Assembly (NCBI GenBank): GCA_038153405.1 | Contig: JAYOYH010000045.1 | Location: 1-39,458, forward strand | Length of the DNA stretch: 39,458 nucleotides | Origin: Gemmatimonadota bacterium | GTDB lineage: Bacteria; Latescibacterota; UBA2968; UBA8231 | Reading direction: 5' to 3' | Shown: positions 3,202 through 16,854 of the stretch, one piece after another | Layout: each line of letters opens with the position of its first letter | Numbering within the stretch: position 1 is the first letter of the stretch | The notes under the pieces: model-generated | What the model was told of the DNA's origin: nothing | The model's database searches: none | Seen by the model: the letters and a program-made list of their open reading frames with translations, nothing else | Program-made: the position numbers and the translations under genes

Positions 3202-4563
3202 TTACGGCCGGTGCGTTCCGGCGCGCGAGGTTGGCAGCGGCAGGATCCATTCGGCCCGGGCTAGGCCGTAGTCCACTTGGGCCAGGTCGCGGGTGGGATC
3301 GATCAGTGGGAAATAGGGGCGGCCGTTGAGCGAGCATTCGACGCGCGCGTATACGGCTATCGCCGCGTCGCTTGGTCGCCGCTCGACATTGGAGAGAAAG
3401 CGCGCGAACTGGGCGATCATGTGGGGGCGTCCACCCATTTTTTCGGATTGGCGCTCGGTCAGGTACTTGCGCGGATGAACGCGCCAGCGCTGACCGGTAG
3501 TCGATTCTTCCAAAAGGAAAGACGATCGACAGGTCTTGTCGCGCAGCTTCATATGCCAGGCGAAGCGATGGCCTTCCTCGCTCCAGCTAGGATTGCCCGG
3601 GTAGAGCCAGTGGCGCAGCGGCAGCACCACCTGCAGCGCGAGGTAGGCCATGAGCAAGGCGGTGACGACCGAGCGGGAGCGCGGCGCAGTCATCTCCCGC
3701 GCCGGCTGGTCGAGCGGCACCGGCCAACGCAGCAGCGCGCGCGGCCAAGAGGGCGATAAGAACAGCAGGCTCAGGGCCGCGCCCAAATAGGGGAAAGAGC
3801 CAATGGAAAAGATCTGGCTGTTGATGAGGTGAAATGCCAGCAAAGCCGCTAGCATACCAGCGCGCGTTCGCTGCCACAGCAGCAGCGGAACGGCGCATAG
3901 GTCGATCAGCAGTCCAGCGTAGCTGAAGGCGTAGGCCGCCGCCGCGCTGTCGAGCAGCCCGGAAAGAGGGGGCAGGTAGAGGCTGTCCGGCAGCCACTGC
4001 CGCATGGGCCAGCCGCGCAGCCAGTCGGCGTTGAGCTTGGCGATGGCGCCGTAGAAATAGACTAGCCCGATCTGGGCGCGCAAGATCCACAGCGACCAGC
4101 TGGGAACGCACGGCGAGCGGATGCTCGGGAAGAGGCGCGCGTCGAGCGAGAACGCGCGGTGAGCCGGAATCCATACGAGCAGGATGCTGACGAGACATAT
4201 CAGGTAGTAGTGGTTTTGATATTGCGCTTGGTCGAGCAGAAATACGTAGGTGTAGCCGAGCGCGAAGAGCGCTGCGGCAAGCCGGTATAACAGACCAACG
4301 GCAATGCAGATGGCCAGCGCGCCCAGCGCGTAAAAATGCAGGTATATCCACGGCTGCGGCCACGGCTCGATCCAGGAAAAGCCGAGGTATTTAAAGTAAA
4401 AAACGGGTTCTACAAAGTGGAAGTCGACTTTGCCGTGGCTCAGAAAGCCATACATATCCCAGGCCATAACAAGGCCAAAGACGATGCGAAAAGAGACCAG
4501 CGAGGCCGCGTCGATAGGGGCAAAGAGGCGCTGCTGTAGCGAGCGGATCGAATGCGTCGGCAT
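3202..4563 (-). CDS. HTTM-domain / vitamin K-dependent gamma-carboxylase-like membrane protein
   Basis: Motifs YQNHYYL, YFYGAIAKLNADWL, WSEEGHRFAWHMKL, SLNGRP..LIDP; multiple TM helices. Confidence 0.88.
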   Translation of the reverse strand: MPTHSIRSLQQRLFAPIDAASLVSFRIVFGLVMAWDMYGFLSHGKVDFHFVEPVFYFKYLGFSWIEPWPQPWIYLHFYALGALAICIAVGLLYRLAAALFALGYTYVFLLDQAQYQNHYYLICLVSILLVWIPAHRAFSLDARLFPSIRSPCVPSWSLWILRAQIGLVYFYGAIAKLNADWLRGWPMRQWLPDSLYLPPLSGLLDSAAAAYAFSYAGLLIDLCAVPLLLWQRTRAGMLAALLAFHLINSQIFSIGSFPYLGAALSLLFLSPSWPRALLRWPVPLDQPAREMTAPRSRSVVTALLMAYLALQVVLPLRHWLYPGNPSWSEEGHRFAWHMKLRDKTCRSSFLLEESTTGQRWRVHPRKYLTERQSEKMGGRPHMIAQFARFLSNVERRPSDAAIAVYARVECSLNGRPYFPLIDPTRDLAQVDYGLARAEWILPLPTSRAGTHRP

Positions 4564-11971: not shown

Positions 11972-12151
11972 TGCATCCCTTTCTCGACGTTCCCGTCCTG
12001 TTCAGTAGAGAGGAGAAGGTAATATATCGGGTGGTAGAGCGTCTCTCAAATCACCTGCGTATCGAAGTAATATGATGGATTGGGTTGACCGCGCATGGAC
12101 TGCGCGTACATTTCCTTGCGTATGTTGGATCTTTTGCGCGAAAGGTATGTT

Positions 12152-12721
12152 ATGATCACAGTAACGGAAGCAGCGGAAAAGAAAATTGCCGAGCTTGTCG
12201 CTAAAAACGACAGGCCGATCAAGGGACTGCGCATTGGAGCGCGTTCGGAGTCGCCGCTCAAAGTGGACTACAAACTGGCCTTTGTATCCGAGGAACAAGT
12301 CGAAGCGTCCGACGAAAGAGTATCCTTTGACGGTTTTGACGTCTTTATGGATCCCGACAGCATCGACCTGCTCGAAGATGCAACCGTCGACTACGTCGAC
12401 GGGCTAATGGGCAGCGGTTTTAAAATCGAACGCCCGCGCAAACTGCCCAAGCATTTAGAAGGCGACCTAGCCCAGCGCGTGCACGAGGTAATTGAAAAGC
12501 AGATTAATCCGGGCGTTGCTGCCCACGGCGGTACAGTAAATCTGGTCGATGTCAAGAATAGCACCGTCTACGTGCAGTTGGGTGGTGGCTGCCAGGGCTG
12601 TGGCATGGCCAGCGTGACGCTTCGCGATGGCGTGGTGCGCATGATTAAGGAAGGCGTGCCAGAGGTAGAAGAGGTTGTCGATGTGACCGATCACGACTCG
12701 GGAGAAAATCCCTACTACTAA
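12152..12721 (+). CDS. nfuA: Fe-S biogenesis protein NfuA-like (degenerate A-type carrier + NifU-C)
   Basis: ITVTEAA start, INPGVAAHGG, GGGCQGCGMA, DVTDH..GENPYY; start at ATG 12152 after AAAGGT. Confidence 0.88.
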   Translation: MITVTEAAEKKIAELVAKNDRPIKGLRIGARSESPLKVDYKLAFVSEEQVEASDERVSFDGFDVFMDPDSIDLLEDATVDYVDGLMGSGFKIERPRKLPKHLEGDLAQRVHEVIEKQINPGVAAHGGTVNLVDVKNSTVYVQLGGGCQGCGMASVTLRDGVVRMIKEGVPEVEEVVDVTDHDSGENPYY

Positions 12722-12741
12722 AGGGCGATTAACAGAGACGG

Positions 12742-12778
12742 AACGGCGCGAGCGCGATCGAGCGTTTCGCGCCGTTTG
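12742..12778 (+). terminator. Hairpin terminator after nfuA
   Basis: AACGGCGCGAGCGC / GCGTTTCGCGCCGTT inverted repeat with a short T run. Confidence 0.65.
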
Positions 12779-12783
12779 CGTTG

Positions 12784-12812
12784 TTGACATCTGGCAGGCG
12801 ATTGCATAACGT
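12784..12812 (+). promoter_or_regulatory. sigma70-type promoter
   Basis: TTGACA (12784-12789), 17 bp spacer, TAACGT (12807-12812); predicted start near 12819. Confidence 0.75.
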
Positions 12813-12832
12813 ACTCTCACAGGCGACAAGAG

Positions 12833-12947
12833 GGCGCCACCAAGTCCGCGGGAAAGGCCGAGCCTACCTCACCTCGCAGCATGCACATAGCAACTTCTTT
12901 CTACCAGTCGAGGGCGGACAGCTGGTGCCATAACGGAAAGAGGTTGT
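12833..12947 (+). promoter_or_regulatory. Structured 5' leader RNA with anti-RBS pseudoknot (riboswitch-like)
   Basis: Helices 12833-39/12923-29, 12844-49/12914-19, 12855-58/12862-65, 12872-76/12909-13; loop 12890-12901 is complementary to the RBS region 12936-12947. Confidence 0.7.
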
Positions 12948-12950
12948 ACG

Positions 12951-13916
12951 ATGGCTGAGACCCTACCTCCAAGGCCCAACCTTGAGCAGCTCAAGAAACA
13001 GGCCAAAGACCTCCAGAAAGAGTACAAAAGCGGCCGCGTAGAAGTCTATGCGCGCATTCGCCTGCACCTGCCGCGCCTGGCGAAAAAGTCCGACGAAGAA
13101 ATGCCCAAAGAGCGCTTTGTGCTGCAGGATGCACAGCACGTCATCGCGCGCCTGTACGGTTTTTCCAATTGGGACATGCTGTGTTCAGCCGTAAAAACGC
13201 CCTTTGCCGCGCTGGTGGATTTTACCGACCGCGAAATCCAGGTTCTACTGCGCCAGGTCGATCAGCGGGACCTCGTCATCGCGCTAAGCGGAGCTGGCAA
13301 AGCGGTGTGCGATAAGATTCTCGGCAATATGTCCGAACGCGTGCGGCAATTCATAAAAGATGAGATAAGCTTTTTGGGACCACTGCGCGACGAGAAGGTT
13401 GACGAGATACAGTATCGCATCGTCAAGCAGTCCGTCCAGCTAGGTGAAAAGGGGCTGGTGGTGTGGCCGCCCAAGCCCTCGAATAGGCGTACGGCCAAGC
13501 AGAAAGAGGCCGACAAGCCCAGCGGTGTCGAGCGCGAAGAGGACGAGGCGCTGCTGCGCCTGGCGCGGAAAACGCTGGGCGAGCTGAGCTACGACGAACT
13601 CCATCAGCTCTTTGTTGGCATGGCCGAAAGGGCGAGAAAGCGGGGGATCTTATCGCTGGAGAGCGTGGGCAACGCAGCGGTCGACCCCTTCATAAAGATG
13701 GCCATTCATCTCGTCGTAGACGGCACCGAACCGGGGTTGATTATGGATATCTTGGAGACGTGGACCAAGTCGCTGATGCACGAGCACGAGCGAAGATATC
13801 AAGATAGGCTACATGAGAACGGAGTGAGATACAGCAAAGTGATTGAAGCGATGATGGCGATGCAGGCTGGCGACAATCCGCGCGTTGTCGAACACAAATT
13901 GTCCGTTATTTATTGA
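12951..13916 (+). CDS. Soluble fusion: N-terminal LPxRPNL helical domain + FliG C-terminal domain + MotA cytoplasmic domain
   Basis: aa 85-172 resemble FliG_C (DREIQVLLRQVD..DLVIAL, NMSER..KDEISFLGPLR); aa 213-321 resemble MotA (ARKRGILSLE, DPFIK..LVVDGTEP..ILE, IEAMMAMQAGDNPRVVEHKL); no TM segment. Confidence 0.82.
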   Translation: MAETLPPRPNLEQLKKQAKDLQKEYKSGRVEVYARIRLHLPRLAKKSDEEMPKERFVLQDAQHVIARLYGFSNWDMLCSAVKTPFAALVDFTDREIQVLLRQVDQRDLVIALSGAGKAVCDKILGNMSERVRQFIKDEISFLGPLRDEKVDEIQYRIVKQSVQLGEKGLVVWPPKPSNRRTAKQKEADKPSGVEREEDEALLRLARKTLGELSYDELHQLFVGMAERARKRGILSLESVGNAAVDPFIKMAIHLVVDGTEPGLIMDILETWTKSLMHEHERRYQDRLHENGVRYSKVIEAMMAMQAGDNPRVVEHKLSVIY

Positions 13917-13950: not shown

Positions 13951-14349
13951 CTACTCTATATCTGGCGGGCTTTGCCGTATGGCATCGATATGCTTTTCTA
14001 GCCGATCCCGTAAATTGCTGAGGGTATCGGTTTTCAACAGGTAGTCATTTGCACCTTGTGCAATGGCTTGGCGGACTATTATCGTATTTGCTTCGCCAGT
14101 AAGGACGACGATCTTGGTTTGCTTAAACTGCGGATTGGCGCGCAGTATCTGCAGTACTTCGATGCCGTCTTTTTTAGGCATGTACAGGTCCAATACGATA
14201 AGTTCGGGTTTAAAGCTCTCACAGTGAGAAATGGTCGTTTCCCCATCTTCCGCTTCCGCTATTTCGCAGTCGAGCTTTTCGAGTATGGCTATGATCTTGC
14301 GTCGACTGATTGTTGCGTCCTCGGCAACAAGCACGCGAGGTTTACTCAT
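13951..14349 (-). CDS. Single-domain response regulator (CheY-like)
   Basis: VLVAED, VLDLYMP, LTG, conserved K; GGAG RBS. Confidence 0.9.
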   Translation of the reverse strand: MSKPRVLVAEDATISRRKIIAILEKLDCEIAEAEDGETTISHCESFKPELIVLDLYMPKKDGIEVLQILRANPQFKQTKIVVLTGEANTIIVRQAIAQGANDYLLKTDTLSNLRDRLEKHIDAIRQSPPDIE

Positions 14350-14529
14350 TGAGCTGCTCCAAGTTGTTATAGAACTGCGCGAGTGCGTTTCGCACGCGCT
14401 TACGCGGTTACCAAGATCGTTGATTTAGCTATTGTATTGTTAATTAATTTCTGCATCGTGCAGGAATTTTATATAGAACGTATCGGCCAGTCAAGGTTTG
14501 TAAACCATTGCCTTTATGTAGGTGAATCA

Positions 14530-16854
14530 ATGCCACGTTCTGCCATCGTCGCATTCCATAAGTCGCAGTTAAACTTCACGCGGGTATACACGGTGTTTGG
14601 GATTGGATTTGGGTTCAGTTTTCCCATTATTGCAACCCTGCTAGACGTCTACATATCCGACTATCCAATGAGTATTCACGGTGCTATAGCAGCACAGCGA
14701 GCTCAACCGCTGCATTGGATTATCAACACAGCGCCCATTTTTCTCGGTTTGGCCTTTGGGATTGCCGGTCGGCGACACCAGCAAATGGCACATACGATAA
14801 ATCAGCTGGAAGAGCGAGAACAAGCACTTCGCAATGCCTCCGTTGCTCTATCTAGAAATAATGCGGTGCTGGTTAAATCAAAGCAGTTGGCGGAAAAAGC
14901 CAATATTGCCAAAAGTGAATTTTTGGCCAATATGAGTCACGAGATTCGCACCCCGATGAACGGTATCATCGGCATGAACGAACTGCTGAAGAACACGCAG
15001 AAGACGCCGCTGCAAACCGAATATGTCAATGCGATCGGTGCGTCGGCCGATGATCTACTCGAGATAATAAATAGCATTCTCGATGTATCGAAGATAGAAG
15101 CGGGCAGGTTCACTCTTGAACATATCGATTTTTCGGTTGGTTCTATCGTGCAGAGCGCGATCCGTCCCATTTCCGTTCGCGCTCACAACAAGGGCTTGGA
15201 ATTGCTCTGCGAAATAGATGGCGATGTACCTCAAATGCTCAAGGGTGACCCCGTGCGCCTCCGCCAATTGTTGATCAACTTGTTGGGCAATGCAATAAAG
15301 TTCACCGAACAGGGCGAAGTGCGTGTGCGCATAGGCGTTGAATCTTCTGACGATGAGGGCATCGTTCTACGCGCTAGTGTGAGCGATACGGGCATCGGCA
15401 TGGCCAAGCAGCAGCAGCAACACATATTCGATGCTTTTTCACAGGCAGATGCATCTACCACCCGGCGTTTTGGTGGCACGGGATTGGGCTTGACCATTTG
15501 CAGCTATATCGTGGATATGATGGACGGTTCCATCTGGGTTGATAGCGAAGAGGGCAAGGGGAGCACATTTCACTTTACGGCGCGTTTTGCAGCGTCAACG
15601 GAGGCGGAAGTCGAGAGTCTGCCATCGCTGGAGTCTTTGCACGGTCTGCGTGTCTTGGTGTTGGACGACAACCTGACAAACCGCAAAATTCTCGATGGTC
15701 TGTTAAGGCGTTGGCATATGGTACCGGTATTGGTTGAATCGGCTATAGAAGGGTTGGATGCCATCGCCAGAGCGAAGGAGCAAGGCAAACCGTTTCAGCT
15801 GATTCTATTAGACGGTATGATGCCCGAAATGAATGGGTTGGACTTTCTGCTGGAACTGCCCGCTTCGCGCGACGTAGTTGCCTCCACGGTTATGATGCTG
15901 TCTTCGGTTGATGATGTAGAATTAGTCCAGCGCGTGCGTGACCGAGGAGTGCGAGTGTACCTGCGCAAGCCCGTTTTACACGCAGATCTACTGGATGCCA
16001 TTTTTTCGATCATAGGGTCTGATTCCTCGTTGGTAGATCCGCTGGCGGCGGCTAGCATTGAGCACTTCGATCTATTGGGTAAACGCATCTTGCTGGTAGA
16101 GGATAACGCAATCAACCAAAAAGTTGCGCTGGGTTTACTCGCAGAGACGAACTGCACCTGCCAAACCGCTGCCAACGGAGAGGAAGCAGTCCAGCGCGTG
16201 CGGGAAGAACCTTTTGACTTGGTTCTCATGGACTTGCAAATGCCGGTGATGGGAGGAATAGAAGCGACGCAGCGCATTCGCGCGTTGGAAGCATCGCAGG
16301 AAAAACATGTGCCCATCGTCGGCTTGACCGCCAATGCGATGCAAGGCACGCGCGAGCAGTGTCTGGCTGCGGGTATGGACGAATACTTGGCCAAGCCGAT
16401 TAAGCGTGCGTCTTTGCATAGACTATTGGGGCAGTTTTTCGATGCCGAATCCCCGGTGTTAGAAGAGGTCAGCGCACCGGCAGATACCGACGCGCAGTCG
16501 CTGGCAATCCTCGACGAAGAGACCTTGGACGAGCTCCATACGTTGGACGCACCGGGCGGCTTTTCGCTGCGCGAGGTCATGGAGCTATTTATCGACGAGT
16601 CGGACCATTTTGTCGAAGAGATGCGCCAGCTGTTGGCCGATAAACAGGGACCCGAATTGCAGCGCTCGGCACACACCTTTAAAGCCAACGGTCGCGATCT
16701 GGGGGCTCAGCGTTTGGCCGCCTTGTGTCAGCAGATTGAAGACCGGGGTCGCGAAGGTCAGTTCGATGGAATCGACGCCCTGATTGACGAAGCCGAACGC
16801 GAGGCCGCGCTCGTCTGCGATGCACTCAAACAGCACAAATACATGGACTCGTGA
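14530..16854 (+). CDS. Hybrid sensor histidine kinase (2 TM, HisKA, HATPase, REC, REC, Hpt)
   Basis: [37 protein letters not shown], two REC domains, RSAHTFK Hpt; start at ATG 14530 is uncertain. Confidence 0.92.

Follow-up and report, generated by a model that had tools for sequence, protein, structure and literature searches.

Several described RNA elements in bacteria and their phages place translation under the control of a structured 5′ leader. In the SAM-II, preQ1-II and preQ1-III riboswitches the Shine-Dalgarno (SD) sequence is sequestered by a pseudoknot, the SD itself forming part of the ligand-binding pseudoknot. The ZTP riboswitch (pfl motif, RF01750) is built of two sub-domains that a variable linker separates and a long-range pseudoknot connects, and is associated with genes of purine and folate metabolism. 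Ribosomal-protein leaders and the operator of T4 gene 32 are autoregulatory, being bound by the product of their own gene. The leader described here precedes an open reading frame (ORF) of 321 aa in a stretch of 39,458 nt that was analysed as a whole and is referred to below as the window. The segment 12822-12953 is one copy of a widespread and uncatalogued family of 5′-leader RNAs, and very likely a new translational control element.

The locus and the predicted 5′ end of the transcript

In the list of ORFs, the leader region (12819-12950) sits between an nfuA-like gene (12095-12721; Pfam NifU and Fe-S_biosyn) and the 321-aa ORF. Reading of the sequence 3′ of the nfuA-like gene revealed a 9-bp GC-rich hairpin (12743-12751/12767-12775) followed by a T-rich run, the whole spanning 12743-12785. 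A simple terminator scan did not call it; it is nevertheless probably the terminator of the nfuA-like gene, and as such would isolate the promoter of the leader. On the other side of the 321-aa ORF, and directly downstream of it, lies a stand-alone response-regulator receiver gene on the reverse strand (13951-14349; the Pfam run in this region covered the receiver only). The translation of a divergent 823-aa ORF within 13951-16854 resembles a hybrid sensor histidine kinase.

An earlier note on this DNA had proposed a promoter of the form TTGACA-17-TAACGT. The site is present (Table 1) and predicts a transcript that starts a few nucleotides before 12822. It was not called by a generic promoter scan, since TAACGT matches TATAAT at only three of six positions. 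With promoter-like sites defined as a TTGACA-like -35 element (at least 5/6 matches), a spacer of 16-18 nt and a TANNNT -10 element, 38 of the 104 copies of the motif with 300 nt of upstream sequence have such a site ending 2-9 nt before the first base of the motif, and only one further site occurs elsewhere in those upstream stretches. This spacing predicts that the motif forms the very 5′ end of the message. At its other end the motif closes with a start codon, from which the homologous ORF is read. In the window sequence no U-run follows the downstream strand of the SD-sequestering helix (helix G, below), which would place any control at the level of translation. Two stretches of the window, 12857-13015 and 12868-13017, are matched identically by metatranscriptome contigs, which bridge leader and coding sequence; they come from two runs of one study and indicate presence only, DNA carry-over being possible, and none extends over 12735-12856, where the predicted 5′ end lies.

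Copies of the leader and their common fold

The 321-aa protein, used as query against 41 related genomes, returned full-length homologues in other genera, and the regions upstream of these have the leader in common, almost base for base in blocks. A covariance model built from seven copies (R1) gave 66 full-length matches in 17 of the 41 genomes, as many as 11 of them in a single genome; the family is about 125-135 nt in length. The window leader scores 122.6 bits (E 7e-29) with R1 and 102.1 bits with a second model, R2, which is restricted to helices A, F, G and H, all of them nested. Its own genome (G000) carries two copies, the one in the window (contig C45) and another at C59:2780-2903. 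A degenerate pattern derived from the alignment was scanned over one genome per species of 185,579 species, with at least 120 matching stretches. Among the matches listed, 78 of the 80 stretches with flanks and titles hold a full-length match to the model, the two misses being L155 and L159. The record titles of the listed matches are mostly Acidobacteriota; the others name Gemmatimonadota, Actinomycetota (Actinopolymorpha), Planctomycetota (Tepidisphaeraceae, Isosphaerales), Chthonomonadales, Deinococcales, Tepidiformaceae, Baltobacteraceae and Proteobacteria (three Inquilinus, Nevskia, Steroidobacteraceae, Parvularculaceae), which we take to represent at least about nine phyla in all, with both MAGs and isolates.

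Shortened copies were also seen. Upstream of the closest orthologue in genome G020 (L003; G020:C88, upstream of 1501) only the last ~45 nt of the leader are left, from the loop of helix H onward and without the anti-SD strand. At L223 (G021:C1:1765540-1765588) the half of the motif formed by helices G and H stands alone before another gene of the same N-terminal type (model positions 74-123, 30 bits).

The leader belongs, as judged from sequence and model comparisons, to no catalogued RNA family, in agreement with the earlier observation that it does not match familiar riboswitch consensus sequences. When the whole window was compared by cmscan with Rfam 15 (4227 families), no match reached the gathering threshold; at E values up to 10, the segment 12700-13000 gave only a partial raiA-hairpin (14.1 bits against a cut-off of 43.7, E 4.1). 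Twenty family representatives from other phyla, searched against Rfam at E up to 0.1, returned a single unrelated tRNA. In searches of the main text of papers no description of the leader family was found, and in the text of PMC11109978 the strings ankyrin, Acidobacter, Planctomyc, Gemmatimon and FliG do not occur.

Two alignments were used to derive and score the fold: A5, the 66 copies from relatives, and A6, 78 copies from other phyla among the matches listed.

Table 1. Features of the leader locus, all in window coordinates; paired, percentage of cells paired in the alignment named.
Feature	Position	Strand	Details
Promoter-like site	12784..12812	+	TTGACA 12784-12789, 17 nt, TAACGT 12807-12812
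Full conserved leader RNA motif	12822..12953	+	covariance-model positions 1-132, the last being those of the AUG
Helix A, 5′ hairpin	12822-12825 / 12835-12838	+	GGCG / CGCC; paired A5 84.0%, A6 88.5%
Helix B, pseudoknot	12830-12833 / 12867-12870	+	GAGG / CCUC; paired A5 80.1%, A6 77.5%
Helix D, long-range loop contact	12844-12849 / 12914-12919	+	GUCCGC / GCGGAC; paired A5 96.9%, A6 99.8%
Unpaired junction between D and F	12850-12854	+	GGGAA; family consensus G-g-n-A-A from A5 and A6
Helix F	12855-12858 / 12862-12865	+	AGGC / GCCU, loop CGA; paired A5 98.1%, A6 99.7%
Linker, 5′ domain to 3′ hairpin	12871..12889	+	variable in length and sequence, roughly 20 nt, unconserved
Helix G, anti-SD/SD	12890-12902 / 12935-12947	+	GCAACUUCUUUCU / GGAAAGAGGUUGU; 13 uninterrupted pairs; paired A5 89.7%, A6 90.8%
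Helix H	12903-12907 / 12922-12926	+	ACCAG / CUGGU; 5 bp; paired A5 98.2%, A6 99.0%
Putatively regulated gene, 321 aa	12951..13916	+	N-domain residues 1-84; FliG_C-like 85-171; MotA/PomA cytoplasmic-loop-like ~210-290

Covariation supports six helices, A, B, D, F, G and H. On A5, 91.3% of cells are paired, as against 81.3% in column shuffles (none of 500 reaching the observed value) and 43-53% when the 3′ partner is slid by 1-3 columns; 35 of the 36 pairs are changed on both sides in some copies, and the covariation score is 0.368, compared with 0.192 in shuffles. The corresponding values on A6 are 92.8% paired, 88.1% in shuffles (0/500) and 37-50% after sliding, with 17 of the 36 pairs changed on both sides; the search pattern fixes the cores of D and G, so that they cannot vary on A6. 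Helices B and D are absent from both R1 and R2, and their pair counts were therefore not fitted to a model. An RNAalifold prediction on a structure-blind MAFFT alignment also returned helices G, H and F.

The 5′ part of the leader opens with hairpin A, in which all four pairs show changes on both sides and whose loop carries the 5′ strand of helix B. By pairing out of this loop with a strand further downstream, B forms an H-type pseudoknot and is found as GAAGG/CCUUC, GGGG/CCCC, CCGG/CCGG, GCGGG/CCCGC and GCAGG/CCUGC in different copies; differing loop lengths and imperfect alignment leave A and B with ragged outer pairs. Helix F occurs as GGCC/GGCC, GGGU/ACCC, GGAC/GUCC and GAAC/GUUC, and the unpaired bases between D and F are near-invariant in the consensus of A5 and A6. 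After the linker, which in one copy (G005:C64) contains an additional hairpin, the 3′ part consists of helix H (variants GCCUG/CAGGC, GCCCG/CGGGC, GCUUG/CAAGC and GCUCG/CGAGC) stacked on helix G. The 14-nt loop of H is divided into 6 nt, the 3′ strand of D and 2 nt. On A5 all six pairs of D are changed on both sides in some sequences, the variants including GCCCGC/GCGGGC, GCUCGC/GCGAGC, AUCCGC/GCGGAU, GUCUGC/GCAGAC and GUCCAC/GUGGAC. An extension of D by the flanking CC/GG, close in idea to the P1 of the earlier note, involves invariant bases only and was set aside as unsupported.

The six helices are topologically compatible with one another, and since the loop of H pairs with the upstream strand of D, the 5′ domain is physically tied to the hairpin that sequesters the SD. 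The real fold is a double pseudoknot and not the three-way junction proposed earlier. Two of the earlier helices survive within it, P2 (GUCCGC/GCGGAC) as the long-range contact D into the loop of H and P3 (AGGC/GCCU) as helix F, both with support from covariation. P1 (GGCGCCA/UGGUGCC) and P4 (CCUCG/CGAGG) do not: over 66 homologues they are paired in 41.6% of cells as against 43.3% in shuffled alignments, 474 of 500 shuffles doing as well, and their bases form instead hairpin A (GGCG/CGCC) and pseudoknot B (GAGG/CCUC). Helix D may in addition stack on H and G in a geometry resembling a hairpin-loop pseudoknot, with the 6-nt loop crossing the deep groove.

The pairing of an anti-SD loop over the SD, on which the earlier note was centred, is present and is one pair longer than the 12 bp claimed. 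Its last pair lies 3 nt before the AUG at 12951, and it covers the SD AAGAGG (12938-12943). Among 1000 dinucleotide-preserving shuffles of the leader, none contained a 13-bp helix and eight a 12-bp helix. On A5, 12 of 12 pairs of helix G are changed on both sides, for example as CCUUCAUGC/GUAUGGAGG in L090, its upstream strand being a pyrimidine tract. As the proposal of upstream conservation would predict, then, the leader is kept before homologous genes and several of its helices, that between anti-SD and SD among them, covary.

For the G/H hairpin folded alone, the predicted energies have a median of -19.5 kcal/mol. The folding energy of the whole single leader is ordinary (z = +0.71), and its centroid structure is exactly the hairpin of the anti-SD/SD pairing. 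Nested minimum-free-energy folds of 144 sequences retain at least 80% of the G/H pairs in 71 cases and less than 30% in 47, and are uninformative, as D competes with G/H in a model that allows no pseudoknot. Two pairings that might free the SD were considered, that of the anti-SD tract with GGNAAGGG (the D/F junction and the 5′ strand of F) and that of the same tract with GAAGG, the 5′ strand of helix B. Both can form in the common sequence but are lost where either side varies, as judged by eye from few informative copies (L090, L074, L070 and many A6 copies with GGG/CCC). No conserved alternative pairing that would release the SD was found.

The proteins read from the leader

Nearly all proteins read from the AUG of the motif share their first 70-85 residues, with a consensus of LPxxPSLEQLKKQAKxLLKA ... 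LxDAQxVIAREYGFxSWxxL. A profile HMM of this N-terminal domain (N-domain), built from the same ORFs and hence a measure of shared homology rather than of an independent family, matches within 900 nt downstream and in forward frame in 131 of 144 copies of the leader. In 125 of those 131 the domain begins within ~30 nt of the end of the motif. Two of the 13 copies with no match are at contig ends, and most of the others lack a start codon or are followed by nothing longer than short ORFs. Seen from the protein side, N-domain genes number 28 in five genomes at E < 1e-15, and 20 of these have the motif directly upstream; an unfiltered search before the remaining eight showed the 3′ half of the motif alone in one case and no match in seven. 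The RNA thus almost always comes with the N-domain (131/144), and the N-domain can exist without the RNA (20/28). Both N-domain loci of the window's genome carry the motif.

What follows the N-domain differs widely. Among 113 proteins of at least 90 aa, Pfam assigned ankyrin repeats to the C-terminal part of the majority and FliG_C to the window protein and its close paralogues; further fusion partners were FliM, sigma-54 AAA, BFN nuclease, TPR, HEAT, LRR, APH, acyltransferase and Clp_N. As far as these sequences go, the constant partner of the leader RNA is the basic N-domain of ~80 residues and not the ankyrin repeats.

The window protein matches the N-domain HMM at E 1.3e-33 and Pfam FliG_C at E 1.4e-20, with partial matches to the NCBIfam fliG and MotA/PomA models, whose scores are far below the curated cut-offs. 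The C-terminal domain of FliG and the cytoplasmic loop of MotA/PomA are parts of the flagellar motor that contact each other. In the window protein the C-terminal (torque-helix) domain of FliG and a MotA/PomA-like stretch are found in one soluble chain without membrane segments. FliG_C-containing frames of ~350 aa are abundant, with nine matches to the window protein in its own genome and up to 21 in relatives; no match to it was obtained in twelve genomes that belong to a single genus within the same class.

At four loci (L056, L066, L076 and L091) the frame that comes first behind the motif is short (64-96 aa) and encodes FliG_C alone, that of L066 being too short for the Pfam scan and assigned by eye. 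The N-domain gene comes second at L056, L066 and L076, and at L091 the HMM detects no N-domain downstream. L056 is the second copy of the window's genome (G000:C59:2780-3999), where the leader precedes a FliG_C-only ORF of 96 aa; the next ORF contains two N-domains in tandem (3202-3468 and 3478-3777), and a protein search showed a TGA inside the second match. Elsewhere, well-scoring leaders stand before ORFs of 3-29 aa or have no start codon (L036/L144, L041, L075, L083, L109, L143 and others), and at some of these loci the N-domain is still detectable in another frame, which suggests frameshifted or decaying genes, or assembly errors.

AlphaFold2, given an alignment of 56 sequences, predicted a confident four-helix structure for the N-domain (pLDDT 85.7). 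The domain is basic, with a median pI of 9.4 and a net charge of +3, in contrast to the acidic remainder of the same proteins (median pI 5.5; n=101). Compared with the PDB, the predicted structure had no meaningful match, and no RNA-binding fold was recognised (Foldseek best E 5.4; VIA (wide) best Z 3.8); the score in the ESM Atlas, 0.80, was at chance level, and no Pfam or NCBIfam family reached its cut-off. The only similarities to named families were a sub-threshold N-terminal one to Pfam Glyoxalase_8, in 5 of 113 proteins, and a weak N-terminal one to NCBIfam PRK05973.

Possible modes of control and comparison with known leaders

The earlier note had read the locus as a translational switch. 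A structured, riboswitch-like leader that occludes the ribosome-binding site has stood up; that it switches is still inferred. Our preferred reading, to which we give slightly less than an even chance, is that the leader represents a new orphan class of riboswitch acting on translation, with a small molecule or an ion as the most likely trigger. The RNA is predicted to begin at, or within a few bases of, the promoter-like site. Its 5′ domain comprises hairpin A, the pseudoknot B formed from the loop of A, hairpin F and the conserved junction bases, and beyond the variable linker the 3′ stack of G and H pairs the SD region with the upstream pyrimidine tract. Given the predicted stability of the G/H hairpin (median -19.5 kcal/mol), the default state would be OFF. 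The pseudoknotted 5′ junction would then serve as the sensor, the signal being read at the near-invariant unpaired bases, and its occupancy would tighten or loosen the grip of the D contact and the coaxial stack on the ribosome-binding site.

A small ligand is favoured by the complexity of the fold, by the conservation of the junction and by the multiplicity of copies within genomes, and the leader does have what riboswitches in general have, a conserved, structured and covarying aptamer-like domain at the 5′ end of a message. Against this reading, no alternative (ON) pairing was found, and with 12-13 + 5 pairs the sequestering helix far exceeds in strength what is common among translational riboswitches. 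What lies downstream, furthermore, encodes scaffold-type proteins rather than enzymes or transporters, united only by one N-domain, which is atypical of a metabolite riboswitch and fits a protein partner; among the 113 downstream proteins no gene-context clue to a ligand was seen.

Such a partner may be the N-domain itself. Feedback of this kind, in which the basic N-domain of the gene's own product or of a paralogue binds the 5′ domain and stabilises the SD-sequestered state, is a serious rival in view of the strict link to one N-terminal protein domain, a link that the earlier note had not foreseen, though we think it less likely than not. The N-domain could even act in cis, on the message of the nascent chain, as in autoregulation of the ribosomal-protein or T4 gene 32 type. 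Consistent with this are the presence of the N-domain after 131 of 144 copies, starting within ~30 nt in 125 whatever the C-terminal domain, its basic character (pI 9.4) next to an acidic remainder (pI 5.5), its confidently predicted four-helix fold (pLDDT 85.7), the motif at both N-domain loci of G000 and the non-metabolic nature of the downstream genes. However, neither the structure comparisons (Foldseek E 5.4, VIA Z 3.8) nor Pfam and NCBIfam recognised an RNA-binding fold or family; 8 of the 28 strong N-domain genes in the five genomes do not have the full motif; the FliG_C-only ORF comes first at L056, L066, L076 and L091; and co-inheritance of leader and gene would yield the same association without any binding. 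A bolder form of the idea, which we regard as unlikely, would make promoter, leader and basic N-domain a portable self-limiting cassette: after limited rounds of translation the nascent N-domain would lock the ribosome-binding site of its own message, and evolution would have grafted the module onto unrelated effectors (ankyrin, FliG_C/MotA-like, FliM, AAA+, nuclease, kinase) across about nine phyla.

The leader might also not switch at all. As a constitutive, cap-like 5′ structure it would protect the message from 5′-end-dependent decay and permanently damp the translation of proteins needed at low level, initiation then relying on standby binding of the ribosome at the unstructured linker. 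The failure to find a conserved alternative pairing, the very stable G/H stack (median -19.5 kcal/mol), the start of the motif right at the predicted 5′ end and, immediately 5′ of the sequestering helix, an unstructured linker of variable make-up (roughly 20 nt) are all in keeping with this. We nonetheless think it improbable, since damping or protection needs a hairpin only and leaves the double pseudoknot, the near-invariant junction bases and the covarying helix D across about nine phyla unexplained. Very improbable, finally, is a processing switch in which the G-H-D stack would be cut by a double-strand-specific RNase (e.g. RNase III, which needs roughly two helical turns), freeing the ribosome-binding site or destroying the message: its geometry would suit, with ~23 stacked pairs (12+5+6) when D docks on H, but the helices are interrupted by bulges and by the loop strand, and nothing in the data singles this mechanism out.

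To our knowledge, few orphan structured leaders combine so wide a distribution with such strong support from covariation, and we know of no solved orphan of such a kind that did not bring to light a new signalling molecule or a previously undescribed form of gene control. The present family combines a spread over about nine phyla, by record title, and up to 11 copies per genome with six covarying helices and two pseudoknots, and it marks an uncharacterised domain of ~80 residues that heads many scaffold-type proteins of soil and aquatic bacteria, many of uncultured lineages. The link between RNA and domain offers a handle on both unknowns at once, and carriers that are culturable by record title (Inquilinus, Actinopolymorpha, Nevskia) make reporter and binding tests feasible. 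For the window locus itself the comparison has yielded the N-domain as the invariant partner, a corrected set of helices and a promoter placement that holds generally. Were the cassette idea true, it would amount to a self-limiting RNA-protein module spread over unrelated effector domains.

Whether the preferred riboswitch reading or feedback by protein is considered, the leader both resembles and departs from the described systems. With SAM-II (RF00521), preQ1-II (RF01054) and preQ1-III it shares a position in cis in the 5′ leader, H-type pseudoknots, conserved junction bases and a ribosome-binding site buried in a helix, with control expected at translation and no terminator. Unlike SAM-II and preQ1-II, whose models it does not match (RF00521, RF01054), it is ~130 nt long with six helices and two crossing interactions; its SD lies in a separate helix of 12-13 bp, G, outside pseudoknots B and D and tied to the candidate sensor domain by a loop contact, and the associated genes are non-metabolic. 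The arrangement of two sub-domains, joined by a linker of variable length and held by a long-range pseudoknot, recalls the ZTP riboswitch; however, neither the window nor the 20 representatives match RF01750, helices and conserved bases differ, and in place of purine or folate genes the leader precedes N-domain fusions (ankyrin, FliG_C, TPR and others). It differs from ribosomal-protein and T4 gene 32 leaders in that its partner domain has no recognised RNA-binding fold and a single genome may hold as many as 11 paralogous copies of the RNA. Like them, it is structured, with pseudoknots of the sort that such leaders often have, it masks the ribosome-binding site, and it keeps strictly to one protein family, as seen in 131 of 144 copies and 20 of 28 genes.
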